Assembly: GCA_002049985.1 (NCBI GenBank)
Contig: MVCY01000057.1
Coordinates: 1 to 19,272, forward strand
DNA: 19,272 nucleotides
Direction of reading: 5' to 3'
Source of the DNA: Candidatus Latescibacteria bacterium 4484_181
GTDB lineage: Bacteria > Latescibacterota > MVCY01
Shown here in pieces: positions 1 to 19,003 of this stretch (positions are counted from its first letter, which is position 1; each line of letters begins with the position of its first letter). The notes below the pieces were generated by a model. It saw nothing but the letters and a program-made list of their open reading frames with translations, was not told where the DNA came from and did no database searches. The translations under genes were made by a program, and so were the position numbers.

Positions 1-21
1 TTGAAAGGCAAACTTGTTCAT
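1..21 (-). CDS. 5' end of the next dcw-cluster gene (only the first 7 codons, MNKFAFQ, lie in the window); identity unknown
   Basis: ATG at 21..19 on the minus strand, one nucleotide after the murC stop (25..23). The operon-style spacing suggests the cluster continues. Too short to identify. Confidence 0.3.
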
Positions 22-22
22 C

Positions 23-1218
23 CTAACCTCTTTTCAATAGATTAAGAAACTCCTCTGCTGTCTTCCAAATATCGCCCGCACCAAAAGTGATTACCAAATC
101 TCCTGGCCGGGTAATCTGGAGCAGATACCCTGCAATTTCCGCTTTTTCGCGTATATAAGTAACAGCTGGATGACCACGTTTTCTGGCAGCGGCGGCTACG
201 AGTTCGCCGCTTACCTCAGGAATGGGAGGCTCCCTGGCGGGGTAGATATCTGTAACTACTATCACATCGGAGACAGACAGCGCCCGGCCGAAATCTTGGT
301 GGAAATCCCTGGTGCGGCTATAAAGATGTGGCTGCGGCAATCTCAGTAGGATGGTGTGCATAGTCATCTACTATGGTGATGCCTCTGACTGTACCTTTCA
401 CTTCGAATCTCCGGTGTACACCGCTGAATTCCTCCAAGGCCTTTTTAATCTTTTCGAATTTTATCTGTAGTTCCAGCCCTACAGCGGCTGCAGCCAGAGC
501 ATTTTTAATATTGTGAACCCCCGGGACCCGTAACCTGATCCCCCCAAGGTTCTCTCCTCGATAACAGAGGTTAAAGCTTCACGAACTCCAAGAACGCCGA
601 TTTGATCTGAGCCAGGTCTTTGTAGCAGTCCAGGTGGTCGGTCTCTATGTTGGTCACCACTGCCACGGTGGGAATGAGCTGTAGAAAGGAGCGGTCGAAC
701 TCATCGGCTTCGGCCACTAAGAATTCGCTGTTCCCCAGTTTTGCGTTTGTACCCAAACTGCGGATGCGGCCCCCAACAATTATGGTAGGGTCCAGTCCAC
801 CCTGGGTTAAGACGCGCCCTGTCATCCAAGCGGTGGTGGTCTTGCCATGGGTGCCAGCAATACCGATGCCGTACTTCATTCGCATCAGCTCTCCTAACAT
901 CTCGGCGCGCCGGATGATCGGTATCTTTCTCTCCCTGGCCCTTACCAGCTCTGGGTTAGAAGATTTAACCGCTGAGGAGTAAACCACTATATCTGCTCCC
1001 TCAACATTCTCTGGCTTATGACCTTCGGTAACTTTAATATCCAAGGACTCTAAATGCTCGGTGATAGACGTTTTCTTAAGGTCAGAGCCAGTCACTCGAT
1101 GCCCAAGGTTGTGAAGCACCTCAGCGATTCCACTCATTCCGATGCCGCCAATACCCACAAAATGAATATTCCTGATCCGCTTCAGCATCGGTTTTTTGTC
1201 TGAAGGAGTTCTCTGCAT
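23..1218 (-). pseudogene. murC: UDP-N-acetylmuramate--L-alanine ligase MurC, disrupted. N-terminal fragment 574..1218, internal out-of-frame fragment about 321..570, C-terminal fragment 26..367
   Basis: The N-terminal ORF has GIGGIGMSG, the GTHGKTTT P-loop and the TNIETDHLD motif, and ends at TAA 573..571 right after ...AFLEFVKL. The next frame reads ...VPGVHNIKNALAAAAVGLEL...RRFEVKG...ITIVDDYAHHPTEI and then hits a stop at 320..318. The third frame continues QPHLYSRTRDF...DIYPAREPPIPEVSG...ITFGAGDI to the stop at 25..23. Compared with E. coli and B. subtilis MurC, about 55-60 residues are missing between FLxxL and PGxHN, and about 18 between DDYAHHPTEI and QPHxYSRT. Confidence 0.8.
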
Positions 1219-1280
1219 AATACTTTTTGCTCTTCATACTATCTTAGTTTTCTCATCCCATCATTATTTAAAAAATCCAT

Positions 1281-2384
1281 CTATATCAGGCCATTCTTTA
1301 TCATTGTGCTGACAATAAGCTCTGCAGCTCTCGGGCGAGCTAACTTCCTGCTATTCTCAGCCATCTGCTGAAGTTCTCTTTTGTTATTTAACAATTCCCT
1401 GATGATGGTGGCAAGGCGTCTGCCATTCAACTCTCTGTCTGCGATTAGACGGCAAGCTCCGGCTTCAAGCAATACCCGGGCATTCTGTTGCTGGTGAAAT
1501 CTGGTGGCATATGGATAAGGGACTAGAATCGAGGGTAACCCGCATCTGGTCAATTCTGCAATAGTTGTGGCCCCTGATCTGGATATAACCAGGTCTGCCG
1601 CCCCCAACGCAGAGGCCATATCAACAATAAAGTCCCAAACAATAACAGGTAAACTAAAAGAGCGCGTCTTTTTTTTCACCTTGGGGTAATCCTTCTTGCC
1701 CGTCTGCCAGAGAATCTGAAGGTTACTGGCCCCGGAAAGCTCCCCGAGTGCCTCCAGCAGCGCCTGGTTGATTCTGCTAGCCCCTTGACTGCCTCCGAAA
1801 ACGAGCACAGTTTTCTTAGAGCTATCCAAGCCCAGCCTCCTGTGTGCCTCCGGTCTTGTGACCGTACCTATCTCTCTTCTAGTCGGATTGCCGCACACTA
1901 CCAGATTGTGGTAATTGGAGAGATATTTCTTTGTTTGCTCAAAGCTTACATTGACCTGTCGGGCAATCCTGGTCAGCATTCTGGTGGTTACTCCGGGCAG
2001 AAGGTTCTGCTCCTGAATAACCACTGGTATCCCCAGGAGCCAGGCAGTGGTCAACACCGGCCCGCTGGCGTATCCTCCCGTCCCTATCGCCACTCGAGGA
2101 CGATAGGTGATCACTATCCAGGCCGCCTGGAGGGTTCCCACCACCAACACCATCGGGAACATGAGAGCTCGCAGGGAAAACCCTCTGGGCAAGCTCCAAG
2201 CAGCTATAGTCTTAAACCTATACCCTGTCTGAGAGACCAGTTGGGTTTGCATCCCCCGGCGTGCGCCCACGAACAGTATCTGTGCTTCGGGATATCTACT
2301 TTTTATCTCATCGGCAATTGCAACAGCAGGGAATATATGTCCTCCTGTTCCTCCAGCGGCAAAAAGCACCCTCAGCCCTGCCAT
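1281..2384 (-). CDS. murG: MurG, undecaprenyldiphospho-muramoylpentapeptide beta-N-acetylglucosaminyltransferase (367 aa, looks intact)
   Basis: N-terminal glycine loop FAAGGTGGHIFPA, GT-B fold length, and position between ftsW and murC. Starts at ATG 2384. Confidence 0.9.
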   Translation of the reverse strand: MAGLRVLFAAGGTGGHIFPAVAIADEIKSRYPEAQILFVGARRGMQTQLVSQTGYRFKTIAAWSLPRGFSLRALMFPMVLVVGTLQAAWIVITYRPRVAIGTGGYASGPVLTTAWLLGIPVVIQEQNLLPGVTTRMLTRIARQVNVSFEQTKKYLSNYHNLVVCGNPTRREIGTVTRPEAHRRLGLDSSKKTVLVFGGSQGASRINQALLEALGELSGASNLQILWQTGKKDYPKVKKKTRSFSLPVIVWDFIVDMASALGAADLVISRSGATTIAELTRCGLPSILVPYPYATRFHQQQNARVLLEAGACRLIADRELNGRRLATIIRELLNNKRELQQMAENSRKLARPRAAELIVSTMIKNGLI

Positions 2385-2463
2385 ACCTGTTTTCCCTTCC
2401 TAGAAATACTGAGTAATATCCCTGTGCTTGCCAAAGAGGCAAGCAAAGAAGAGCCCCCATAGC

Positions 2464-3324
2464 TTATGAACGGCAGCGGTAATCCATAGCCACCGTTCCG
2501 ATAAAACCCCATTCTTCCCCTATTATGGAGTAGATAAAGTCGGTGTGGGGGGCAGGCAAGAAGAGGAATTTCTGCCTGCTGTGACCCAGTCCCAATCCCC
2601 GCAGACCCCCGCTCCCCAGCGCTACAAGCGATTGATACGTTTGGTAATTTATACCTTGAAGATTTTCTGCTGGATGCAAAAAGGCCTTCAGTCTGGCCAA
2701 TCTGTAGCCTACCTGAGATATAGAAAGATAGATAACGGGAACCGCTGCCAATACAAGACCTCCTAAATGGAGAAGCTTTATTCCGGCCAAGAAGAACATA
2801 GCCGTGACTACCGTCATAATGGCCACAGCGGTACCTAAAGCCGGCTCCAAGATAATCAAACCCACGGCCATAAGGAGAATCAATAGATGGGGTAGGAACC
2901 CCCAGACAAAACTCTTTATTCGATCCTGTCGCCTCGCCAGTGAATCAGCCATATAGATGATCAATGCGACTTTCATAAATTCCGAGGGTTGAAAATTGAA
3001 CCTGCCAATGTGAATCCAGCGGCAGACCTTTTGAGGCTGACCTGTAAACTTCGGCATTAACACCAGCACCAAGAGAAGAAATCCCAACAGCAGAAGAGAT
3101 ATTGCCGCTGTGCCAGAAAGCTTGCTGTAGTCAGTAAGCGAGGCCAGAATCATCACCGATGTCCCCAGTAGAACTATAAATAGATGCTTCTTCAGAAAGA
3201 AACTGCTGTCTTGGTACTTCACCTCCGAGATCACCGAACTGGAGCTGTAAACCATCACCACCCCTATTCCCACCAGTACTATAGTGACGGCTAATAGTGT
3301 GAGGTCAACGGAATTCTCCTTCAC
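2464..3324 (-). CDS. ftsW: FtsW (SEDS-family lipid II flippase/polymerase), C-terminally truncated at 286 aa
   Basis: Multi-TM protein with the SEDS motif ...PAPHTDFIYSIIGEEWGFIG, but the ORF stops about 10 residues later (DYRCRS*). The last two TM helices and the conserved PTKG..TLPF(I/L)SYGGSS block are absent. Only 79 nt separate the stop from the murG start, so the missing ~80 codons are not present in any frame. GTG start at 3324 is preceded by the Shine-Dalgarno-like run GGGGGAG. Confidence 0.75.
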   Translation of the reverse strand: MKENSVDLTLLAVTIVLVGIGVVMVYSSSSVISEVKYQDSSFFLKKHLFIVLLGTSVMILASLTDYSKLSGTAAISLLLLGFLLLVLVLMPKFTGQPQKVCRWIHIGRFNFQPSEFMKVALIIYMADSLARRQDRIKSFVWGFLPHLLILLMAVGLIILEPALGTAVAIMTVVTAMFFLAGIKLLHLGGLVLAAVPVIYLSISQVGYRLARLKAFLHPAENLQGINYQTYQSLVALGSGGLRGLGLGHSRQKFLFLPAPHTDFIYSIIGEEWGFIGTVAMDYRCRS

Positions 3325-3364
3325 TTTCTCCCCCTTCCAGGCATGGAAGAAAACCCCGCCGCTT

Positions 3365-4453
3365 TTATCTGATCTTAAGCGTACTTAAACTGAGCAGGGC
3401 AAAAAGTAGCCCCAGGATCCAGAAACGGATAACAATTTTAGATTCTCTCCACCCCTTGAGCTCAAAATGATGATGGATGGGAGCCATTAGAAATACCCTT
3501 CTTCCTCGCCACTTGAAGGAGGCAACCTGGATTATAACCGAAAGCGCCTCGATCACAAATACTCCTCCAATAATCACCAACAGTAACTCTTGCTTCACCA
3601 AGACAGCCACTATAGCCAGAGCTCCTCCTAAGGCCAGGGCGCCTGTATCCCCCATAAATACCTGGGCAGGATGAGCATTATACCACAGGAAACCCAGACA
3701 AGCACCTAAGGCGGACAGACAAAAGACCGTCAGCTCTCCTACTCCGGGCAGATAGAGGATATTCAGGTAATGGCTGAATACACTGTGGCCGCTCACATAA
3801 CTAAAAGCAGCGTAAGCGGCCACCGCAATGCCCACCAGCCCAATGGCTAACCCATCCAGACCATCGGTTAGATTGACCGCGTTAGAAGTCCCTGTGACCA
3901 CAAGGACTACTAAAGGGATGTAGAGCCAATGAAAATCAATAAGATAATTCTTTAAGAAAGGCAAATTTGTCTTAGTTGCCACCTGTTCAGAAAGAGGGTA
4001 AAGATAGAGAATGAGTCCAATTGTGAGACCTAAGCCAATCTGACCTAAAAGTTTGTATCTGCCAACTAATCCTTTGGGTGTTTTCTTGACCGTCTTAAGG
4101 TAGTCATCGACAAGGCCCACTGCGCCCATCCAAACTGTGGAGAAAAGAACCAGAAGCACGTATCGATTGGACAGATCCGCCCACAGGAGCGTGGGGAGAA
4201 CGATAGCCAGAAGGATTAGGATTCCTCCCATTGTTGGGGTCCCTTGCTTGGACCGATGCTCCTTTGGTACATAGCGGTTGATTTGCTCGCACAGTTGACG
4301 ACTCTTGAGTTTGCCGATAACCCAGGGACCGAAGACAAAACTCACAAGCAGGGCCGTTATGGCTGCATAGGCTGATCTAAAAGTTATATATCTGAAAATA
4401 TTAAAACCGGAGAAATACTTCAATAAGACCTTGTAAAAAAGACAATAAAACAT
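3365..4453 (-). CDS. mraY: MraY, phospho-N-acetylmuramoyl-pentapeptide transferase (362 aa, looks intact)
   Basis: Polytopic membrane protein with the motifs GLVDDYLK, NAVNLTDGLDGLA and APIHHHFE. ATG at 4453 is preceded by the Shine-Dalgarno-like GAAAGGGG. Confidence 0.9.
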   Translation of the reverse strand: MFYCLFYKVLLKYFSGFNIFRYITFRSAYAAITALLVSFVFGPWVIGKLKSRQLCEQINRYVPKEHRSKQGTPTMGGILILLAIVLPTLLWADLSNRYVLLVLFSTVWMGAVGLVDDYLKTVKKTPKGLVGRYKLLGQIGLGLTIGLILYLYPLSEQVATKTNLPFLKNYLIDFHWLYIPLVVLVVTGTSNAVNLTDGLDGLAIGLVGIAVAAYAAFSYVSGHSVFSHYLNILYLPGVGELTVFCLSALGACLGFLWYNAHPAQVFMGDTGALALGGALAIVAVLVKQELLLVIIGGVFVIEALSVIIQVASFKWRGRRVFLMAPIHHHFELKGWRESKIVIRFWILGLLFALLSLSTLKIR

Positions 4454-4532
4454 ATTTTTCCCCTTTCATGCCAAATATAGGCGAAACCCGCCAGAAGAGA
4501 TCACCAACGCCCCTCTGCTCTTCTCCCACATT

Positions 4533-5792
4533 TCACCGGTACTTGCCACAGTCTATATTTTCCATAATCTCTTCCATTCTCAGCCTCCGGGAACCTTTGA
4601 TCAAAATCACATCTCCCTCTCTCAAAAACTGGGAAAGCCACTCCGAAACTTCCTGGTTATCTTGGAAGTGCCTGGTCTTTCCGGTCATCCCCAGACTATC
4701 TGCCTTATGGGACGCCAGCTTCGACAATTCTCCCACGGTCAACAGATAGTCAATACTGCTTTCTGCCACATACTGGCCAATCTGTTCGTGAGCCTGTGGG
4801 CCGTGCTCTCCCAGTTCTAACATATCTCCCAACACAGCAATTCGTCGCCCTCACAGCAATTCGTCGCCCTTGAGGTTTAACTTCCAGAGAAATAAGCAAT
4901 TGCAGTGCAGCTTTTGTCGAATCAGGGTTGGCATTATAGGTGTCATTGATGAATCTGACACCGCCTTTGTCCAGCATCTGGCATCTGAGGGCCGGGGGCC
5001 GAACCAGCAGAGGACTTCTGCCTGGAGATCCGTCCTGGCCTTGATTCCAAACCCTACAAATCTTCCCTTAACTTCACTACTTATGGCCTGCAGGTATGGG
5101 TCGTCCATATTGAGCACCACAGGGCCTGAGTTGTTCAGATATCTTATCAGCTCTGCCTTGGACTGCGCTATCTGCTGGATGGTGCCGAAACCCTCAAGGT
5201 GAGCCGGGCCGATGTTAGTAATAAGACCCGTCTCAGGGGCAGCTAACTCTGCCAGTCGTCCTATTTCCCCCGGGGCACTTGCCCCTAACTCTACCACCCC
5301 AAACTCATGTTGAGGAGAAAGCCGTAAGAGCGTGAGGGGAAGACCAATGTGGTTGTTAAGATTACCCTCCGTCTTAAGTACCCGGAACCGGGTGCCCAGA
5401 ATCTCCGCAGTCATATCCTTAGTGGTAGTTTTGCCATTTGTCCCTGTAATAGCAACAAAGGGGATAGGGAATCTTCTCCTATAGGAGGCTGCCAGTCTTT
5501 GTAGAGCCAGCAAGGGATCATCCACCCTGATCAGCAATCCATCACTTTCTGCCAGCTTCGGATAATCTCGCCGGACAATGGCTGCACTGGCCCCTTTCTT
5601 GAGTGCCTGGGGCACAAACTGGTGCCCATCGAATCTTTCCCCTTTGAGGGCAAAGAATACCTGACCCCTCTGGAGTGTTCGGGAGTCTATGGAAACGCCT
5701 TGCGGTTTCCGGCTCAGAGAGGATGGAACAGAATTCCCTTCTGCCTGACCACCAACATCAACAATAATCTCTTCTATCGAAAGTCCCTTCAT
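4533..5792 (-). pseudogene. murF: UDP-MurNAc-pentapeptide synthetase MurF, split over three reading frames (about 5009..5792, about 4870..4977, 4536..4832)
   Basis: Frame 1 has the GTNGKTTT P-loop and reads through ...VGFGIKARTDLQAEVL. Frame 2 reads LDKGGVRFINDTYNANPDSTKAALQLL...GRRIAV. Frame 3 reads LGDMLELG...VILIKGSRR to the stop at 4535..4533. The 2-to-3 shift is caused by a perfect 19-bp tandem duplication. The 1-to-2 junction also lacks about 70 residues compared with E. coli MurF. Confidence 0.8.
4833..4870. repeat. Perfect 19-bp tandem duplication (cacagcaattcgtcgccct x2) inside murF
   Basis: Copy one is 4833..4851 and copy two is 4852..4870, identical. Removing one copy restores the MurF reading frame (...GRRIAVLGDMLELGEHG...). 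Confidence 0.9.
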
Positions 5793-7252
5793 AGTTCAGC
5801 CTGCAGAATTTCCCTCACTACCTGACGGTCGTCGAAGGGAAGAATTCGGTCTCGGATTATCTGGTAATTTTCGTGTCCTTTGCCAGCAATGACCACCGCA
5901 TCTGCCTTCTGGGCAATCTTCAGGGCAGAGGCAATCGCTTCTCTGCGGTCAGGCACGATCTGATAGGCCCCTTTCTTCATGCCATCAGTGATCTGTTTGA
6001 TGATCTGGTCAGGGTCTTCATTGCGAGGGTTATCAGAAGTAACGAAGCACAGGTCCGCCATCTGCGAGGCAACTTTTCCCATTAGCTGACGCTTGCCTTT
6101 GTCTCGATCGCCCCCACAGCCGAAAACCAAGATAACGCGGCCAGATGTCAGCTCTCTTATTGTCCCCAGCAGCGCCTCTAAAGCACCTGGGGTGTGAGCA
6201 TAGTCAACGGTCACTGAAAATGGTTGACCGCAATCTATTTGTTCAAAGCGACCGGGAATTTTCTCTATCTTTCCGATCGCCTCACCGATGGAGTCCAATT
6301 CGAAGCCGTTCACAAACCCCACTCCGATTGCTGCCAGAATATTCGTGACGTTAAACTTCCCTTTTAGACTTGACCTCACCCTAAGTCCTCCTCCTGGGGT
6401 TTTCACCAGAAGTTTTATCCCTTCCCAGTCAAGTTTGAAGTCAAGCGGATGGATCATCGCCTTCTGGGAGAGACCATAGGTCAGCACTGGTGCTTCTGTC
6501 CAGCGGAGGATCCATCCAGAGGCGGGGTCGTCTATGTTGACCACCGCATGGGCCCCGTCTGATACATCTAAGCTCCTGAACAGTTTACCCTTAGCCTTCA
6601 AATACTCTTCATAGCTTCTGTGAAAGTCGAGGTGGTCTCTGCTTAGATTTGTGAAAACAGCGGTTTGGAACCTAATACCATAGACCCTGTCTAATGCGAG
6701 GGCATGAGAGGAAACCTCCACTGCTGCCGCCTGCTGTCCGGACTCCAACATCCTCGCTAACATTCGGTTTAAGTCTAAGGACTCAGGGGTAGTTCTACTG
6801 GCAGCAAAAGAGTGCCCGCCCACCTGGTAGTTGATGGTGCCGACAAGTCCGGTTCTGATACCCATTCCTTCAAATAACTCTCTCACCAGGACCGAAACTG
6901 TGGTCTTACCATTTGTCCCAGTGATGCCCACTAGCTGCATCTTCCGAGAGGGATGTCCATAGAACTCATCTGATAAGATAGCAAGCGCCCTCCGAGAGTC
7001 AGGGACTTTGACGAAAGTTGCCTTCGTCGACTTTCGTGAGACGTCTTCGTGCTCCAAAACAACAGCTCTGGCACCTCTGGCCAGAGCTTCATCTATGAAC
7101 TTGTGCCCATTGGTCTGAAAACCCTTGATGGCGACAAAAAGGTCTCCTTCTGCCGTATCTCTGGAGTCATATTCGATCTTTTTTACCTCAATATGAGGGT
7201 CTCCACTCACCACTGCCTCTGGCAGCGACTTGAGTAAGGAACTGAGCTTCAC
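5789..7252 (-). CDS. murE: MurE, UDP-MurNAc-tripeptide ligase adding the third residue (487 aa, looks intact)
   Basis: GITGTNGKTT P-loop, a DNPR-containing C-terminal domain and Mur-ligase length. GTG start at 7252. The stop overlaps the murF start (ATGA at 5789..5792), which indicates translational coupling. Confidence 0.9.
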   Translation of the reverse strand: MKLSSLLKSLPEAVVSGDPHIEVKKIEYDSRDTAEGDLFVAIKGFQTNGHKFIDEALARGARAVVLEHEDVSRKSTKATFVKVPDSRRALAILSDEFYGHPSRKMQLVGITGTNGKTTVSVLVRELFEGMGIRTGLVGTINYQVGGHSFAASRTTPESLDLNRMLARMLESGQQAAAVEVSSHALALDRVYGIRFQTAVFTNLSRDHLDFHRSYEEYLKAKGKLFRSLDVSDGAHAVVNIDDPASGWILRWTEAPVLTYGLSQKAMIHPLDFKLDWEGIKLLVKTPGGGLRVRSSLKGKFNVTNILAAIGVGFVNGFELDSIGEAIGKIEKIPGRFEQIDCGQPFSVTVDYAHTPGALEALLGTIRELTSGRVILVFGCGGDRDKGKRQLMGKVASQMADLCFVTSDNPRNEDPDQIIKQITDGMKKGAYQIVPDRREAIASALKIAQKADAVVIAGKGHENYQIIRDRILPFDDRQVVREILQAEL

Positions 7253-7277
7253 TGTGATCTACCTTTGATTATGGCGG

Positions 7278-9245
7278 TTACTGTAAACCGTTTTCTGCCT
7301 CAATTAAGCAGACTGTGCCGGCTTTGACCTTAACTCCTGCCGGGGGGATTTGTCTTCGTACAACACCTGTGCCGACAATCTTCACCTTTATTCTCTGGCG
7401 GTGGAGGAGATCTACTGCTTCCCTGAGGCTCATCCCGGTCACTCTGGGCATGAGATGACCCCCATCACCATGGTCTGCATAAGCCCGTGATTGATTTCTA
7501 GTTTGCATTTCTAAGGGGGAGGAAATGAGAGAATCGGTGCGGACTGCAAGTGTTGCCGACTTTCCCCTTATCGGGCAGTCATTTAAACTGAGGATGCGGC
7601 TGATGATTCTCTTAAAAGTGGGGGCAGCTACCTGTCCGGCCCAGTGATTTTTTTGCGGTTCATCAATGCTCACCAAGCAAAGCAGCTGAGGCTCCTCGGC
7701 TGGTAGAAATCCTACAAAGGAACAGATTACCTTTTGAGGGTCGTATCCCCGGCCATTCTGTCGGCTTTTCTGCGCAGTGCCTGTTTTACCAGCTATGGAG
7801 AAGCCTTCTATCTTGGCCTCAACTCCGGTGCCCGACTCTACCACATCGCACAGAATTTCGGTAACTGTCCTAGCGGTTTTCTCTGAAACCACCTTTCGTA
7901 CCACCTCAGGAGATTGTTCCTTTATGAGCTTACCGTCTTTGCTGCTAATAGCCTTAAGGACATAGGGTTTCATCAAATATCCCCCGTTGGCAATAGCGCA
8001 GTAGGCGGTGGCGAGCTGAAGAGGGGTGGCGGATATCTCCTGCCCTATAGCTATTGTAGCCAGCGACCTCTTAGACCAAGAAGACGGGTGGTGCACAATT
8101 CCCTTTGCCTCACCTGGCAGTCCGATCCCGGTTCTGGTACCAAAGCCAAAGGCTCGGATGTAGTGGTAGAATCGCTTTTCACCGACCGCCTGAGCTATCT
8201 TTATCGCTCCGATATTGCTGGAGTGTTTAATCACATCCTTAAGGGTGAGCCATCCATAGCTGTGCCAGTCATGGATAGTCCCGCCGGCCACTTTCATCTT
8301 GCCGTTTTCACAGAAGATAAGGTCTGTGGGGTTCCTCAACCCCTCCTCCAAAACAGCTGAAATAGCAACCACTTTAAAGATAGAGCCGGGTTCGAAACAG
8401 TCCCTAATCGCTCTGTTCTTCCTGTTCCCTGGATTACAGGAAGCAGGATGATTAGGATCGTAAGAGGGAACGGAGGCCATTGCTAGAACTTCACCAGTCT
8501 TAGGGTTCATAATGAGAGCTGTTGCCGCCTTTGCGTCAAAACGGCGGACAGCGGCTTCTAACTCCTCTTCGGCGATGGCCTGGTATCTGGAGTCTATTGT
8601 CAGGACAACATTAAGGCCGTCGCGGGCTCCTTTTGGGCTATTCCCAAAGATAGAGAGCTTTCTTCCCCAAGCATCGACTCCCGAGACCGCCCATCCGTTA
8701 GTGCTTCGTAAGTACTTGTCAAAAGCGAATTCTACCCCTTCAATCCCCCGATTGTCGACATCGGTGCCCCCTATGAGTTGTCCTGCCACAGAACCCAGAG
8801 GATAGTTTCGCTTCGCCTCTTCTATCTCTCTTATTTCTGTCAGATTCAGAGAGTCGAGCCTTCTTGCTATCTTCCAGTCCAGCTTTCTGGCTAACCAGAC
8901 AAACGATCCCTTATGCTTTAGCCGTCTGAGAAACAGACTCTCGGGTTTCTCCGTGAGAGTGGAAAGACAAGCAGCTACTTTAGCCGGATGTTCTATCTCC
9001 ATCGGATTGGCTGCTAAAGAACGGGTAGAAATGTCGACGGCCAGACTGACACCATTTCGGTCCAGGATATTGCCCCGCTTGCCTCGCAGACTGATTCTCT
9101 GCTCACTCTGCCTTTTGCTCTTCCGCAAATAGGTCTTGCCGTTGAGCAATTGAATGTGGATCAGACGATTTGTTAAAAATAGCCAAACAATAACGATAAT
9201 GAGCCCTACGAGATAAAGCTTAGCTACATAAACTCGTTCCTTCAT
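7278..9245 (-). CDS. ftsI: FtsI-type class B penicillin-binding protein with a C-terminal PASTA domain (655 aa)
   Basis: N-terminal TM helix, a dimerisation domain, the transpeptidase motifs SIFK (SxxK), SSN and KTGT, and a C-terminal PASTA-like ~65-aa module. Confidence 0.9.
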   Translation of the reverse strand: MKERVYVAKLYLVGLIIVIVWLFLTNRLIHIQLLNGKTYLRKSKRQSEQRISLRGKRGNILDRNGVSLAVDISTRSLAANPMEIEHPAKVAACLSTLTEKPESLFLRRLKHKGSFVWLARKLDWKIARRLDSLNLTEIREIEEAKRNYPLGSVAGQLIGGTDVDNRGIEGVEFAFDKYLRSTNGWAVSGVDAWGRKLSIFGNSPKGARDGLNVVLTIDSRYQAIAEEELEAAVRRFDAKAATALIMNPKTGEVLAMASVPSYDPNHPASCNPGNRKNRAIRDCFEPGSIFKVVAISAVLEEGLRNPTDLIFCENGKMKVAGGTIHDWHSYGWLTLKDVIKHSSNIGAIKIAQAVGEKRFYHYIRAFGFGTRTGIGLPGEAKGIVHHPSSWSKRSLATIAIGQEISATPLQLATAYCAIANGGYLMKPYVLKAISSKDGKLIKEQSPEVVRKVVSEKTARTVTEILCDVVESGTGVEAKIEGFSIAGKTGTAQKSRQNGRGYDPQKVICSFVGFLPAEEPQLLCLVSIDEPQKNHWAGQVAAPTFKRIISRILSLNDCPIRGKSATLAVRTDSLISSPLEMQTRNQSRAYADHGDGGHLMPRVTGMSLREAVDLLHRQRIKVKIVGTGVVRRQIPPAGVKVKAGTVCLIEAENGLQ

Positions 9246-9247
9246 CG

Positions 9248-9529
9248 TTATTCTCTTAGTTCCACAAGAAGTTCCTCTGGTGGAGCGTCAGGGGGAAACA
9301 TTCCCAGTTTTTCTGAGGCTATTTTTTTGACCCTCGAGGCACCGGACAAACGAGCTATCTGGGTCTGTAGATGTCTTTTCTCCTCAATCAGTTTTTGCTT
9401 CTGAAGATATAGGGCATCGATCTCCTTTTTCAGGCTGGTCACTGTCACCTGTTCCCAGACATACGCTAACATACCCGCTACTAAAATAATGAACAGCAAA
9501 ACAAACCTCACAAATGTTTGCCGTTTCAT
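9248..9529 (-). CDS. ftsL: FtsL-like cell division protein (93 aa, one TM helix plus coiled coil)
   Basis: Small bitopic protein with a leucine-rich heptad region, sitting exactly between rsmH and ftsI. Its start overlaps the rsmH stop (ATGA at 9526..9529). Confidence 0.6.
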   Translation of the reverse strand: MKRQTFVRFVLLFIILVAGMLAYVWEQVTVTSLKKEIDALYLQKQKLIEEKRHLQTQIARLSGASRVKKIASEKLGMFPPDAPPEELLVELRE

Positions 9530-10302
9530 TTCGAATCCGCTGTCTTCTCTGCTACTCTCAGTTTAGCACTTCTTGCCCGCCGGTTGGCCTTTTTCTCCTC
9601 TTCACTGGGTAAGATTGGCCTTTTGGCAATCAACTTCAGTATCTTTTTCCCCCCGCATACACAAGTCGGAAGTCGAGGAGGACAGATACAGCCTTTAGAG
9701 TACTGAATGAATAACGATTTAATTGTGCGATCCTCCAAGGAGTGATAAGAAATAATACAAAGCCTTCCTCCGGCCTTCAGAAGGTTGATGCACTGTTCAA
9801 CAGAAGGCCTCAGGATTTCGAGTTCCAGCTCCTCTTCCGGATAGGTATTAACCACCTGCCAGGCCGTCTTTTGGGCCTGGGGATTCATCCTCATATCCAG
9901 CGGACCGCGGAACCTGTAGCTGAAACCACGCCTGGGAGAGTCAAGCTGATGGGAAGAGACTCCCAAATCGAGTAGTATCCCGTCTACAGCTTCAATGCCT
10001 TGCTGTTGCAAGATTGCCGGTAAGTTTTGGAATCCCGACAGATGAAAGCTGACTTTTTCGCCGAAGAGAGAGAGTCTCCTCTTGGCTGCCTGGATTGCCT
10101 CCGGGTCCTGGTCTATGGCGATCAGCCTTCCCCTCTCGCCTAAGCCGGAGAGAACCTGGTAAGCGTGCCCGCCCCCTCCCACCGTGCCATCGACATATAT
10201 CCCGTCCGGATTGGTGAGAAGATATTCCACCGTCTGCCTCAGAAGCACCGGAAAGTGAAAATCCTGTTGGGCAGTCATAGTTTCACACTTGGAACTCCTC
10301 AC
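9526..10302 (-). CDS. rsmH: 16S rRNA (cytosine1402-N4)-methyltransferase RsmH/MraW, abnormally short; the likely true start is ATG 10278 (the track ORF begins at GTG 10302)
   Basis: The SAM-binding motifs (DGTVGGGGHA, ILLDLGVSSHQLD) and the C-terminal GGRLCIISYHSLEDR and RARSAKLRV are present. About 55-60 residues between ...NTYPEEEL and ELEILRP..., which in other RsmH proteins include the HPATRTFQA(L/I)RI block, are missing in-frame. ATG 10278 lies 4 nt after the mraZ stop. Confidence 0.8.
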   Translation of the reverse strand: MRSSKCETMTAQQDFHFPVLLRQTVEYLLTNPDGIYVDGTVGGGGHAYQVLSGLGERGRLIAIDQDPEAIQAAKRRLSLFGEKVSFHLSGFQNLPAILQQQGIEAVDGILLDLGVSSHQLDSPRRGFSYRFRGPLDMRMNPQAQKTAWQVVNTYPEEELELEILRPSVEQCINLLKAGGRLCIISYHSLEDRTIKSLFIQYSKGCICPPRLPTCVCGGKKILKLIAKRPILPSEEEKKANRRARSAKLRVAEKTADSK

Positions 10303-10714
10303 TAATCTTCTCTAAAGCACCCTGGTTCTGCTGTTTATATTGCTCAAACCGCTCTGGATTCCAGAGTTCTATTCGGTCCAGAGCACCGGCTACGGTAACT
10401 TTACTGTCGATCTCCGCCCATTGCAATAGGTTCCTGGGTATAAGTATCCGCCCCTGCTCGTCCATCTTTGTTTCCCAGGCCTGGGAGGCCACTATCCTCA
10501 CATAGTGCCGCGCCCGAGTGGGAAGTTGGCGCAGTTTCTCTTCAAATTTTGTCCAGATATCTAATGTGTAAATTGCTAAGCACCTATCTAGACCACGGGT
10601 TACCACGAACGTCTTCTTAGCCTCAGGCGGAAGAATATCCCTGAAACTGGCTGGGATGTTCATCCTGCCCTTGGTGTCTATAGTGTACTCATACTCTCCT
10701 TTGAAGCTGGGCAT
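10283..10714 (-). CDS. mraZ: Transcriptional regulator MraZ (143 aa)
   Basis: Two MraZ/SpoVT-AbrB-type repeats (EYEYTIDTKGRMNIP... and ...MDEQGRILIPRNLL). ATG at 10714 is preceded by GGGGAAAG. The longer track ORF to 10822 would run through the gene's own operator and -10 element. Confidence 0.85.
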   Translation of the reverse strand: MPSFKGEYEYTIDTKGRMNIPASFRDILPPEAKKTFVVTRGLDRCLAIYTLDIWTKFEEKLRQLPTRARHYVRIVASQAWETKMDEQGRILIPRNLLQWAEIDSKVTVAGALDRIELWNPERFEQYKQQNQGALEKISEEFQV

Positions 10715-10771
10715 AAATCTTTCCCCGTTAATGAATAGATAATAGATGCTTACCATGGGGCTCCATTTGAG

Positions 10772-10796
10772 CCCACATTCACCCACATTTACCCAC
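10772..10796 (-). promoter_or_regulatory. MraZ operator: three direct GTGGG repeats on the minus strand (CCCAC on plus at 10772, 10782, 10792) with 10-nt periodicity
   Basis: Read directly. On the minus strand the sequence is GTGGGTAAATGTGGGTGAATGTGGGC. This matches the known MraZ binding-site architecture (TGGG/GTGGG repeats separated by 5-nt spacers), just downstream of the -10 of the mraZ promoter. Confidence 0.6.
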
Positions 10797-10801
10797 TTAC
10801 C

Positions 10802-10850
10802 ATAATAACTACCTCTTGACAAAAAGTCAAGAAAAAAATCGATATTTTTC
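10802..10850 (-). promoter_or_regulatory. Sigma-70-type promoter of the mra/dcw operon with an upstream A/T-rich UP-like element
   Basis: On the minus strand, -35 TTGACT (10830..10825), a 17-nt spacer, then -10 TATTAT (10807..10802). An A/T tract (10831..10850, near-palindromic around ATCGAT) sits immediately upstream of the -35. Confidence 0.55.
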
Positions 10851-13306: not shown

Positions 13307-14176
13307 GGATTGAATGCCAAGAAAAGAGAAAGCAGTTAATCCTCAAGCAATTTGTCTATCTTGCTCTTTATTCACGGATCCACTTTGAAAGTAGTCTTTT
13401 GATTGTCTGAGACCACTGTTCTTTTCAAAAATAGGTATAGAAAACTCCTTCTTTAAGGTCTCACTCAGCCGAGAGAATAGCTGATGTAAGGTTTTGGAAT
13501 GAATAGCCCTCCTACTGAGCCGGTTGTAGAAGATCTAGATTCTCTCCAGAAGACGAGAAGAATACGCAGATGGCGCAGGCTATTCTCAAAACGACCAGAG
13601 AGCTGTATATCTTGTTTCGTTCGCCTTTTTATCGCCACTTGCGGTCAGATCAAATTTTCGCGAGAGCGTGATCTTCGGTTTTCGTTGCTGAGCTACGGCT
13701 GGCTTTATCCTCGGAATCGGCCGCACTGCCCACTTGCCACGGCGGGGTTTAATCGCTTGAAATCAACGCTAAGGAAACTGAATGTTTGCTCCTATGTGAG
13801 TCTTAGCATGTGGTCTTTTCCCGGTTCAGCCTAATATCAACCTCATTCAACTCACCAAGAGTGTCTGTCTGCCGTTTTTGCCGGCCAAGCAATTTTCGAA
13901 AATCCCTACACGGATTGCCAGTCAGGCAGCCCGGGAGAACCTCACTCTCAGGCGATCACACATTGGGACATAAACCTCGCGGCTCATGCCACCTATCGCC
14001 CGACCGCTGGTAGTATTCCCACCGCGAATGGAGAATAGTTCCAGCTGGCACACCAGAAATGAAAAGGGAAATATACTAACTTGCTGACTATTCGAGAAAC
14101 ACATTCTGTTGTGGTCTCAGTATCTTTGCAGCAAGAAGCGGCTTTGTGTCCTTCTGGGGGCGGATTAAAGTTTCCC

Positions 14177-14205
14177 TTGACAAAACTTGATGTTTGTTGT
14201 ATAAT
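14177..14205 (+). promoter_or_regulatory. Perfect-consensus sigma-70 promoter upstream of map
   Basis: TTGACA (14177..14182), an exact 17-nt spacer, then TATAAT (14200..14205). GGAG sits 10 nt before the GTG start at 14241. Confidence 0.55.
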
Positions 14206-14240
14206 GACTTTTCCTAGCTTTACCGCGGAGCCCAATCAAT

Positions 14241-15032: not shown

Positions 15033-15932
15033 CAACATAACATAATAGCCACTGCCTCGGTAGGGGCAGCAATCGGTTTGACCGAGGTGATAAGTCACCT
15101 TAAGGGCACTATTCAGGTTATAGGCACCCCCGCTGAAGAGAGCGGTTGCGGGAAGAAGATCCTGGTAGAGAAAGGGATATTCAGCGGGGTGGACGCTGCA
15201 ATGATGGTTCACCCTTCCAATCGCACCTTGGTGGCACGGGGTTCCCTGGCTTCCCAACTGGTGGAGGTGAAATTTTACGGCAAGGCTGCTCACGCTGCTG
15301 CTTATCCAGAGAATGGCATCAATGCCTTAGACGGAGTCATCGAGACCTTTAATAACATCAACGCCCTTCGACAGCACCTGCCGAGTGATGTCCGCATCCA
15401 CGGTATTATCACGCACGGGGGAACAAGAACCAATATTGTGCCCGACTTCGCTGCCGCCCGCTTCCAGGTGAGGACCGCTGACGACGAATACCTTGATCAA
15501 TTGTTACAGAAAGTGGAAAACTGTGCTCGAGCGGCAGCTCTGGCCACAGGAGCCACCGTAGAATTCGTACTGAGTAACAGTCTTTACCAGGCTATGAGAC
15601 CCAACCGTGCCCTGGCCGAACTATTCGCCGCCAATCTTCGCCACCTTGGTGAGAAATTAGACGAACCACCACAGACCGGAACGATGGGGTCCACCGATAT
15701 GGGGAATGTGAGCCAGGCAGTACCAGCTATTCACCCATATATTGCTATCTGTCCCAAAGAGGTAGTGGCACATTCACCACAATTCGCTGAGGCTGCCATT
15801 TCTGACAGGGCGGATAGAGCGTTGATAACCGCTGCTAAGGCTTTGGCGATGACTGCTGTAGACCTGTTGAGCAATGCCGCTGTGATGAGTAGAGTGCAGC
15901 AGGAATTCAAATCGCACCATCAGAAATATTGA
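15033..15932 (+). pseudogene. M20-family amidohydrolase/peptidase (M20D-like) lacking its N-terminal ~100 residues
   Basis: The open frame begins right after the TAG at 15030..15032 and reads ...IATASVGAAIGL...LKGTIQVIGTPAEESGCG (the M20 GTPAEE motif), then the dimerisation and C-terminal domains to the stop at 15932. The N-terminal metal-binding region is absent. No ATG or GTG lies between 15033 and the TTG at 15078. Confidence 0.7.
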
Positions 15933-16023
15933 CGAGATATTAGTGGGCTCAACTCCCCATTTGCCAGTCACAAGTCAACAAGAGTCAAAACTAGTCGGCT
16001 TAGCGCCGGAGACTCGGTCAGCA

Positions 16024-16938
16024 GTGAAAATAGTAACCTTAGGAACAGGGGGGGCCATCCCTACCCCGGCCCGAAGTCTACCTGCAACCGCCTTGCAGAG
16101 AGAGGCAGAGATATTCCTCTTTGACTGCGGAGAAGGCACTCAGCTGCAGTTCCTAAAAGCAGATTTGAGTCCAGGAAAATTAAGGGCCGTCTTCATATCC
16201 CATCTGCACGGAGACCACATTCTGGGACTTCCAGGGCTGCTTATGACCCTGGCCCATCTGTCGCGAAAGGCTCCTCTCTCGTTGTTTGGACCGCCCGGGG
16301 TATCAGACTACATCCGCTTGACCTGTAGATGTCTTCAATTCAGTCCTGGATATGAGCTCATAGTCAAAGAATCAAGCGGAGGGCGGGTTTACAGTGGTCC
16401 TGACTACTGGATCGATGCAGTGCCTCTTGATCACACCGTGTTCACATTAGCCTATGTCTTTGAGGAAAAGGAGCGTCCCGGGAGGTTTCTCCTGGAACGG
16501 GCCCGACAGCTTGGTGTGCCTGAGGGGCCTTTGTACGGCAGGCTTCAGACCGGGACGGATGTCACCCTCAGCAACGGCAGAGTAATCCGGGCAACAGAGG
16601 TACTGGGAAAACCCAGAAGGGGAAGGAAGGTCGTCTACGCAGTTGATACCCGTCCCTGCCAACAGGTGAAAGAAATCTCCACCGGTGCAGATCTGCTGAT
16701 CCACGACGGGATGTTCTCAGACCAACTACGGGAGGAAGCCCGTCTGAAAGGACACTCCACCGCTGTTGAGGCGGCAGAGGTGGCCCAGAATGCCAAAGTT
16801 GAAAGACTTCTGCTCACTCACATAAGTCCCCGTTACCGCAATCAGGACGCACTTCTGCAGAAGGAGGCAATGACCATCTTCCCCCACACCACCGTCGCCA
16901 AAGACCTGATGCAGTTCAAAATCCAAGTGCACAAATAG
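16024..16938 (+). CDS. rnz: Ribonuclease Z / metallo-beta-lactamase-fold tRNA 3'-processing endonuclease (about 304 aa from GTG 16024; the track ORF starts at 15943)
   Basis: VKIVTLGTGGAIPT N-terminus, the HxHxDH motif (ISHLHGDHILGLPGLL), and C-terminal His/Asp motifs (LIHDGMF, LLLTHISPRY). GGAG lies about 12 nt before GTG 16024. Confidence 0.8.
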   Translation: MKIVTLGTGGAIPTPARSLPATALQREAEIFLFDCGEGTQLQFLKADLSPGKLRAVFISHLHGDHILGLPGLLMTLAHLSRKAPLSLFGPPGVSDYIRLTCRCLQFSPGYELIVKESSGGRVYSGPDYWIDAVPLDHTVFTLAYVFEEKERPGRFLLERARQLGVPEGPLYGRLQTGTDVTLSNGRVIRATEVLGKPRRGRKVVYAVDTRPCQQVKEISTGADLLIHDGMFSDQLREEARLKGHSTAVEAAEVAQNAKVERLLLTHISPRYRNQDALLQKEAMTIFPHTTVAKDLMQFKIQVHK

Positions 16939-17302: not shown

Positions 17303-19003
17303 ATGCCTTACAAACCTGAGAATCCGATGGTTGTCCAGAGTGACCGGACTATTCTGTTAGAGGTAGACAATCCTCGTTACGAGGATGCCAGGGACCGGTT
17401 AGCAAGATTTGCTGAACTGGAGAAAAGTCCCGAACACATGCACACCTACCGTATAACTCCGCTTTCGCTGTGGAATGCGGCTGCCTCTGGGCTGAGCGCC
17501 TCTGAGGTGTTGGATACCCTGGGCCGTTTCAGTAAGTACGAGATCCCTCAGAATATTGAGGCTGAGGTGATGGAGTATATCTCTCGCTACGGGAAGTTAC
17601 AACTTTGTCGATCAGGAGAAAAGCTGGTCCTGAGCTCGACGGACGCCCACATCATCAAAGAGATCTGGCACAACAGAGAGGTGCGACCGTATCTGAAAGA
17701 ACTTGTCGACGGGAAGGCCATTCTGGTGGAACCCCGCTGCAGAGGCTACCTGAAACAAGAGCTCATCAAATTTGGTCTGCCGGTGGAGGATTTGGCGGGC
17801 TACGTCGAGGGCGCTCCTCTCACCTTACTGATACGTGAGAAAACGCGAAGTGGACGGAAGTTCCAGTTGCGACCATATCAGCAGCAAGCAGTTGAGGTTT
17901 TCCACGCCAGCGGAGGTGCAACTGGGGGTTCAGGGGTAATCGTGCTTCCCTGTGGGGCTGGTAAAACGATTGTAGGAATGGCTGCAATAGAGAAGCTCCA
18001 GACCCAAACCCTCGTCTTGGTGACCAATATCACTGCCCTCCGACAATGGGAGGAAGAACTGTTGGATAAAACCACTCTTTCTGCCGACCAAATAGGCGAA
18101 TACTCCGGAGAGAAGAAGGAGGTACGTCCTGTCACCATTGCCACTTATAACATCCTCACCTACCGAAGGAGCAGAGAGGAAGATTTTCCCCATTTTGAGC
18201 TGTTTAACCGGCAGAACTGGGGGTTGGTGATTTACGATGAGGTCCATCTGCTGCCAGCGCCGGTTTTTCGTATTACTGCCGAGATTCAAGCCAGAAGACG
18301 GCTGGGGCTGACCGCCACCCTGGTGCGCGAAGACGGAAGGGAGACAGATGTGTTCAGCCTCATCGGACCCAAGAAATATGATGTGCCCTGGAAAATACTG
18401 GAAAAGCAGGGCTGGATCGCGCCTGCCGAGTGCTGGGAAATAAGAGTGGAGCTTCCTCCACAATTGAGGCTCCGGTATGCAGCGACAAACCTGCGGAAAA
18501 AGTTCCGGGTCGCATCGGAAAACCCCGCCAAGGACGAATTGGTGATAAGGCTGGTGCACCAGCACAGAGGTGCCCAGATCCTGGTGATTGGACAATACAT
18601 CGCCCAACTGGAAAACCTTGCCCGAAAACTGAACGCGCCGATCATCACTGGCAAAGTGGGGAGTTGGGAAAGGATCAAGCTTTACAACATGTTCAAACGA
18701 GGCGAGATTAAACTGTTAGTGGTGTCCAAAGTGGCCAACTTCGCCGTCGACCTGCCGGATGCTAATGTAGCCATCCAGGTCTCCGGCACGTTCGGCTCCA
18801 GACAAGAGGAGGCTCAAAGGTTGGGCAGGATACTCCGTCCCAAGACAGATGGAAGTACAGCTCGCTTCTACTCCCTGGTTACTCGAAATACTACAGAACA
18901 GGAGTTCGCCGCAAACAGACAACTGTTCCTTACTGAACAGGGCTATAAGTACACGATTCAAGACGCGACAGTCTTCTTCAGCCTAAGAAGCCGGAGGCGA
19001 TAG
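17303..19003 (+). CDS. XPB/ERCC3 (Rad25)-like SF2 DNA helicase, 566 aa
   Basis: N-terminal damage-recognition-like domain, then helicase motifs: Q/I (LRPYQQQAV...LPCGAGKT), II (VIYDEVH), III with the XPB-specific RED motif (GLTATLVREDGRE), and VI (QRLGRILR). RBS GAGAGG lies 4 nt before ATG 17303. Confidence 0.85.
   Translation: MPYKPENPMVVQSDRTILLEVDNPRYEDARDRLARFAELEKSPEHMHTYRITPLSLWNAAASGLSASEVLDTLGRFSKYEIPQNIEAEVMEYISRYGKLQLCRSGEKLVLSSTDAHIIKEIWHNREVRPYLKELVDGKAILVEPRCRGYLKQELIKFGLPVEDLAGYVEGAPLTLLIREKTRSGRKFQLRPYQQQAVEVFHASGGATGGSGVIVLPCGAGKTIVGMAAIEKLQTQTLVLVTNITALRQWEEELLDKTTLSADQIGEYSGEKKEVRPVTIATYNILTYRRSREEDFPHFELFNRQNWGLVIYDEVHLLPAPVFRITAEIQARRRLGLTATLVREDGRETDVFSLIGPKKYDVPWKILEKQGWIAPAECWEIRVELPPQLRLRYAATNLRKKFRVASENPAKDELVIRLVHQHRGAQILVIGQYIAQLENLARKLNAPIITGKVGSWERIKLYNMFKRGEIKLLVVSKVANFAVDLPDANVAIQVSGTFGSRQEEAQRLGRILRPKTDGSTARFYSLVTRNTTEQEFAANRQLFLTEQGYKYTIQDATVFFSLRSRRR

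Follow-up and report, generated by a model that had tools for sequence, protein, structure and literature searches.

Canonical MurC (UDP-N-acetylmuramate--L-alanine ligase) carries three Mur-ligase domains (PF01225, PF08245, and PF02875) in one polypeptide. In most bacteria murC is individually essential, as are murF, ftsW and the methionine-aminopeptidase-type gene. Genuine pseudogenes are well known from reductive genome evolution, e.g., in Mycobacterium leprae and in recent host-restricted symbionts. Real gene decay of this kind gathers substitutions, is common to the isolates of a lineage and spares the genes on which viability depends.

Local errors in metagenomic scaffolds have also been described. 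Scaffolding by IDBA-UD puts Ns between contigs, at times despite an overlap between them, and in a second type of error the overlapping flanks are retained as duplicated sequence at the scaffold join (Chen et al., 2020, Genome Res, PMC7111523). The script ra2.py was written to find such local assembly errors, of which one curated genome contained 13 per 1.13 Mb; when uncurated, they carry incorrect protein-coding sequences into public databases (PMC7111523).

The window, that is, the whole stretch of DNA analyzed here, is a complete scaffold of 19,272 nt from the MAG 'Candidatus Latescibacteria bacterium 4484_181'. Its proteins are deposited at NCBI as OPX31815-OPX31830 (including OPX31826.1 and OPX31828.1), with locus tags B1H40_034xx. 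The MAG, ex4484_181 (SAMN06288098), originates from Guaymas Basin and is listed as Latescibacteria (WS3) in Table S3 of Dombrowski et al. (2017, PMC5569505), with a completeness of 54.03%, a GC content of 49.8%, a size of 0.995 Mb and 102 scaffolds. Raw reads were 125 bp long. IDBA-UD (mink 75, maxk 105) served as the assembler, and ESOM was used to bin the scaffolds with a length of 5 kb or more (PMC5569505). In the methods passages that deal with curation, contaminant scaffolds are removed, and neither an error-correction step nor N removal is mentioned (PMC5569505). The window contains zero Ns, so joins between contigs are not marked as gaps.

The minus strand of positions 1..10822 harbors the dcw cluster (mraZ, rsmH, ftsL, ftsI, murE, murF, mraY, ftsW, murG, and murC). 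In this cluster murC is distributed over three frames as a result of two clean DNA losses of 155 and 53 nt, which shift the frame because neither length is divisible by three. The exact positions follow from aligning the window with near-identical public contigs that encode an intact MurC of 467 aa; for each loss, the corresponding coordinates in one of these, L001, are given.

580..1218, minus strand: murC fragment A, codons M1-V213; TIGR01082 282.5 bits, profile positions 1-199
578..579, minus strand: junction of the 155-nt loss (L001 11807-11961), microhomology 1 nt
336..578, minus strand: murC fragment B, codons S266-A346, second frame; TIGR01082 100 bits, profile positions 263-333
334..335, minus strand: junction of the 53-nt loss (L001 12206-12258), microhomology 2 nt
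23..334, minus strand: murC fragment C, codons Q365-G467, third frame; TIGR01082 78.3 bits, profile positions 353-448

Residues 1-213 of fragment A are 100% identical to the intact MurC of L001. They span the Mur_ligase N-terminal domain and extend halfway through the middle domain, in which the P-loop GTHGKTT lies at residues 122-128. Past V213 the frame continues K-L-TAA, and the resulting ORF (571..1218, minus strand) ends ...AFLEFVKL with its stop at 573..571. The first loss amounts to 51 2/3 codons, from codon 214 position 2 to codon 265 position 3, and covers N214-S265 (NRVPFYG...FQGFSS): NRVPFYGTVILCLDEPGLQSIIPEVKKPLVTYGLSPDAAVQASQVHFQGFSS. Past A346, fragment B continues A-A-T-S-L-TAG to a stop at 320..318, the tail of the second-frame ORF being DDYAHHPTEIAAATSL. 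The second loss removes 17 2/3 codons, from codon 347 position 2 to codon 364 position 3 (A347-F364): ASLKAARDGWSNRIVSVF. Fragment C runs to the natural murC stop at 25..23. In a global alignment to the intact allele, 397 of 467 murC codons are retained, spread over the three frames.

This alignment bears out the original prediction that murC is interrupted twice by a deletion and a frameshift, down to the TAA that directly follows ...AFLEFVKL, the second stop (a TAG) and the third frame that picks up at QPHLYSRTRDF. The second deletion, placed at ~18 residues near 320..367, corresponds to the 53-nt loss. The first had been estimated at ~60 residues; the deletion and its frameshift are real, but its size is about 52 residues. 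The loss was thought to reach up to PGxHN, whereas the 17 residues before VPGVHN are genuine MurC sequence, and the terminal 'KL' and 'ATSL' are both out-of-frame read-through rather than MurC sequence.

The assignment of all three fragments to MurC is confirmed by TIGR01082 (the NCBIfam murC equivalog), which each of them matches. Its cut-off of 335.1 bits is passed by none of the three, and the intact L001 allele scores 540.4 bits. In fragment A, PF01225 is intact and PF08245 is cut off at position 111 of 200; fragments B and C carry PF02875 positions 1-29 and 53-127, respectively, in different frames and with positions 30-52 gone. The three domains are not found in one polypeptide in the window: the locus is murC-derived, yet no window ORF qualifies as a MurC protein. 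The intact MurC can be aligned over its full length with solved structures (8dof/29zm, at 457 bits, as well as 2f00 and 1p3d), and the 70 lost residues align to conserved blocks of solved MurC structures. The gene order in the intact contigs is murG-murC-murB, and both the P-loop and the position within the dcw cluster are those of a murC. The window gene resembles that of a canonical MurC in the share of codons that its fragments cover and in its place downstream of murG, but two parts are missing from it: residues 214-265, which make up the second half of the middle domain, and residues 347-364, with which the C-terminal domain starts. Translated literally, it could give rise to an N-terminal product of at most 215 residues, which would consist of the domain that binds UDP-MurNAc and of that half of the ATP-binding domain which contains the P-loop, and nothing beyond. 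By analogy with the domain architecture of Mur ligases, this product would be predicted to be inactive, with no ligase activity expected, because it stops midway through the ATP-binding middle domain and has no C-terminal domain at all.

Public contigs (ENA, Logan, JGI) were found by exact-protein look-up with the neighboring MurG. At the DNA level, twelve contig stretches of the same population are 99.9-100% identical to the window; they come from no fewer than eight samples. This part of murC is reached by five other contigs (L001-L004 and L092), on which the count of intact murC rests, and all five are lesion-free; the full 467-aa MurC is encoded by L001-L004, while L092 extends to the first lesion only. 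A single continuous MurC frame of ~460-480 aa, which the original prediction had named as the observation that would speak against it, is therefore what these four independent assemblies contain. The locus is indeed murC by sequence and not a different protein, but a gene disrupted in the organism, as the prediction implies, is unsupported, since it is intact elsewhere. Intact sequence across the 155-nt site is present in Ga0164318_10000437, and the deletion junction itself has no match in the metagenome-contig and viral-contig collections. The protein collections searched hold no record of the truncated MurC product, nor of the 250-aa RsmH and 566-aa helicase that result from two of the lesions listed below. 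Among the GTDB representatives there is no genome of this species, the best MurG match being 52% (Latescibacterota MAGs). In a homologue search with the 215-aa MurC fragment, the identical 467-aa MurC is not among the matches listed, though it occurs on public contigs, and the best relatives among the matches listed show 68-69% identity (JGI protein, Zixibacteria MAG). The 1,196 nt of murC in the window contain zero private substitutions and differ from some contigs at the shared polymorphisms 177 and 1205 only.

Compared with the public contigs, the window carries nine private structural lesions in seven genes, namely deletions of 2, 53, 61, 154, 155, 157, 195, and 260 nt and one 19-nt tandem duplication. 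Beyond murC, seven private indels are spread across six other genes (coordinates of the lost DNA refer to the intact contigs L001 and L005).

2486..2487, minus strand: 157-nt loss in ftsW, out-of-frame (L001 9742-9898)
4853..4871, minus strand: 19-nt tandem duplication in murF, GAGGGCGACGAATTGCTGT, with a TGA created at the copy junction
4872..5003, minus strand: 132-nt island between the two murF lesions, with substitutions at 4882, 4891, and 4899
5003..5004, minus strand: 154-nt loss in murF, out-of-frame (L001 7090-7243)
9825..9826, minus strand: 195-nt loss in rsmH, in-frame, 65 codons (L001 2073-2267); product 250 aa
14283..14284, plus strand: 61-nt loss in the M24 peptidase gene (methionine-aminopeptidase-type), out-of-frame (L005 12181-12241)
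15034..15035, plus strand: 260-nt loss in the M20 peptidase gene, out-of-frame (L005 12993-13252)
18971..18972, plus strand: 2-nt loss in the XPB/ERCC3-type helicase gene, 15 nt before the stop (L005 17190-17191); product 566 aa

The corresponding intact proteins in the public contigs measure 467 aa (MurC), 369 (FtsW), 464 (MurF), 315 (RsmH), 260 (M24), and 396 (M20). All nine lesions but one are out of frame, the exception being the in-frame loss in rsmH. In murF, the net effect of the 154-nt loss and the 19-nt duplication is a change of -135 nt that restores the frame, but the TGA stands at the duplication junction. The three substitutions in the 132-nt island, all of them transitions, are the only private substitutions of the window. 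A reading of 4853..5003 as a "151-nt read" was dropped, because 19 nt are the duplicated copy and the island proper measures 132 nt.

Against its closest contigs the window shows nine indels and five substitutions (two shared polymorphisms, three private), in contrast to the 74 substitutions and 5 small indels that separate the public contigs among themselves (Fisher test on the indel/substitution ratio, p = 3e-6). Neither selection nor a mutational mechanism has left a sign in the lesions: eight of nine are out of frame, microhomology is at chance level (mean 0.9 nt vs. 0.67 by chance; range 0-2 nt), inverted repeats do not flank them and the lost DNA does not lie elsewhere. Neither direct nor inverted repeats were found flanking the breakpoints when the window was compared with the intact contigs. 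Slipped-strand deletion and k-mer collapse between direct repeats are rejected on the 0-2 nt of microhomology and on 12-nt flanks that match no better than random, and polymerase jumping over hairpins on a longest inverted match between deletion ends of just 4-6 nt. Site-specific excision is rejected as well, since inspection of the junction sequences reveals no common breakpoint motif, and so is relocation, as no deleted segment is found elsewhere within the window.

Strain variation lies close to two of the lesions. In ftsW, one polymorphism (L001 9899) is at the edge of the lesion and another (9837) inside it (Poisson p = 0.004), and the M24 lesion is 8 nt away from a population polymorphism (window 14291; L005 12249); both fit with contigs breaking at strain-variable sites. 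The combination of polymorphic alleles in the window is an exact match to no public contig. Because of this, the window is an independent reconstruction; by itself, the allele mix is also compatible with a distinct real strain.

Both murC breaks are most probably artifacts of a draft metagenome scaffold, in the form of local errors in assembly or scaffolding, rather than mutations of a living lineage (estimated probability roughly 0.86), because every other assembly that reaches the site carries an intact gene. The organism's real murC would probably be the intact 467-aa gene. As is expected of local assembly errors, the source is uncurated scaffolder output and the lesions are blind to gene, frame and function and absent elsewhere. 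De Bruijn assemblers normally do not delete unique sequence without a repeat, and for this reason the errors must stem from the scaffolding or gap-handling step. The population may have assembled into about ten short contigs, some of them broken at strain-variable sites, which would then have been butted together without the intervening 2-260 nt, either by the scaffolder or by later removal of gap Ns. At one join, two contigs truly overlapping by 19 nt may have been butted unmerged, giving rise to the tandem duplication in murF. We infer that the exact step was the IDBA-UD scaffolder itself or a later removal of gap Ns. The likeness to the described IDBA-UD errors extends to the uncurated IDBA-UD source, to lesions that are short, local and ORF-breaking, to the duplicated sequence at a join and to independent assemblies without the lesions; in contrast to those errors, the density is unusually high and there are no Ns at the joins (PMC7111523). 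Nine errors in 19 kb, as opposed to 13 per 1.13 Mb (PMC7111523), implies unusually poor local coverage or strain heterogeneity. Such errors do not explain why three of the deletions (154, 155, and 157 nt) are nearly equal in size.

It is unlikely that the deletions are real, i.e., that a Guaymas Basin Latescibacteria strain, or a subset of genome copies, lost the function of murC, murF, ftsW and other genes by end-joining-type deletions; its cluster for wall synthesis and division would then have undergone true pseudogenization. The lesions do stand in the deposited sequence with no Ns, in an allele combination unlike that of every public contig, and non-homologous end joining also leaves blunt junctions with 0-2 nt of microhomology. 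However, the private substitutions are confined to the 132-nt island, although variation in this population consists mostly of substitutions, and no lesion recurs in any other assembly (at least eight samples). Several normally essential genes would have been affected simultaneously, together with unrelated peptidase and helicase genes, so the loss is not pathway-specific; the source, moreover, is an uncurated IDBA-UD scaffold. Like the pseudogenes of reductive evolution, the window murC combines recognizable homology with frameshifting deletions and premature stops (two of each, both deletions being out of frame). In contrast to them, its lesions come without accompanying substitutions or a second observation and affect normally essential genes: none of the five contigs reproduces them (L092 bearing on the first lesion only), and murC lacks the private substitutions by which relaxed selection would be recognized. 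A burst of end-joining deletions that hit murC, murF, ftsW, the methionine-aminopeptidase-type gene and others at once is more improbable still. Were the lesions real, the simultaneous knock-out of murC, murF and ftsW in a free-living sediment bacterium would be remarkable. Such a genome could persist only via complementation by intact copies, or else wall synthesis would have been lost very recently; the evidence speaks strongly against real lesions.

The chance that sequence handling after assembly, such as the stripping of gap Ns before submission, gave rise to the lesions is slimmer again, and this differs from a scaffolder error only in the step concerned. Removing Ns from an IDBA-UD scaffold would give blunt 'deletions' and an occasional tandem duplication such as 4853-4871, and the window is without any N; on the other hand, no N removal appears in the methods passages cited above (PMC5569505). 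With this variant counted in, an artifact is more probable than the scaffolding error taken singly. Single-base errors at the homopolymer runs 516..523 and 541..545, which the original prediction had suspected, and programmed recoding or a split-enzyme murC have nothing more to commend them than the presence of G-runs in the region and are refuted by the alignment to intact MurC, in which 335..578 agrees with the intact gene at every base, also in the G-runs, without a gap or mismatch, and in which 155 + 53 nt of conserved coding sequence are gone, so that no frameshifting could restore the 70 residues.

Read as scaffold errors, the murC breaks have little biological consequence, the organism having an ordinary intact MurC. 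The deposited MAG scaffold, on the other hand, calls for caution, as it would carry at least nine artifactual lesions in 19 kb. Taken at face value, these would make it look as if a candidate phylum had lost genes for peptidoglycan synthesis and cell division. Such lesions would also lower completeness estimates and let truncated proteins or false pseudogenes enter databases.

Other features of the window concern gene content. In this lineage murD is absent between mraY and ftsW (window 3324-3365; L001 8863-8904), and a Latescibacterota MAG (L012, 8743-8850) has the same order without murD, judged by ORF sizes only; murD must be located elsewhere in the genome or be absent. A search of the whole window yielded neither Rfam families nor tRNAs. 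The stretch 13307-14240 (~930 nt), which separates the SDF symporter from the M24 peptidase, has no gene called in any public contig and contains a 111-aa ORF (13499..13834). Positions 15943-16938 encode an MBL-fold protein that is named ribonuclease Z at NCBI and also matches PF23023 (Anti-Pycsar Apyc1) in precomputed annotations. The XPB/ERCC3-type helicase (17303-19003) contains Helicase_C_3, ResIII and ERCC3_RAD25_C, and in the intact contigs (L005 15521-19396) it is followed downstream by a second Helicase_C_3 protein, with which it forms a conserved gene pair.
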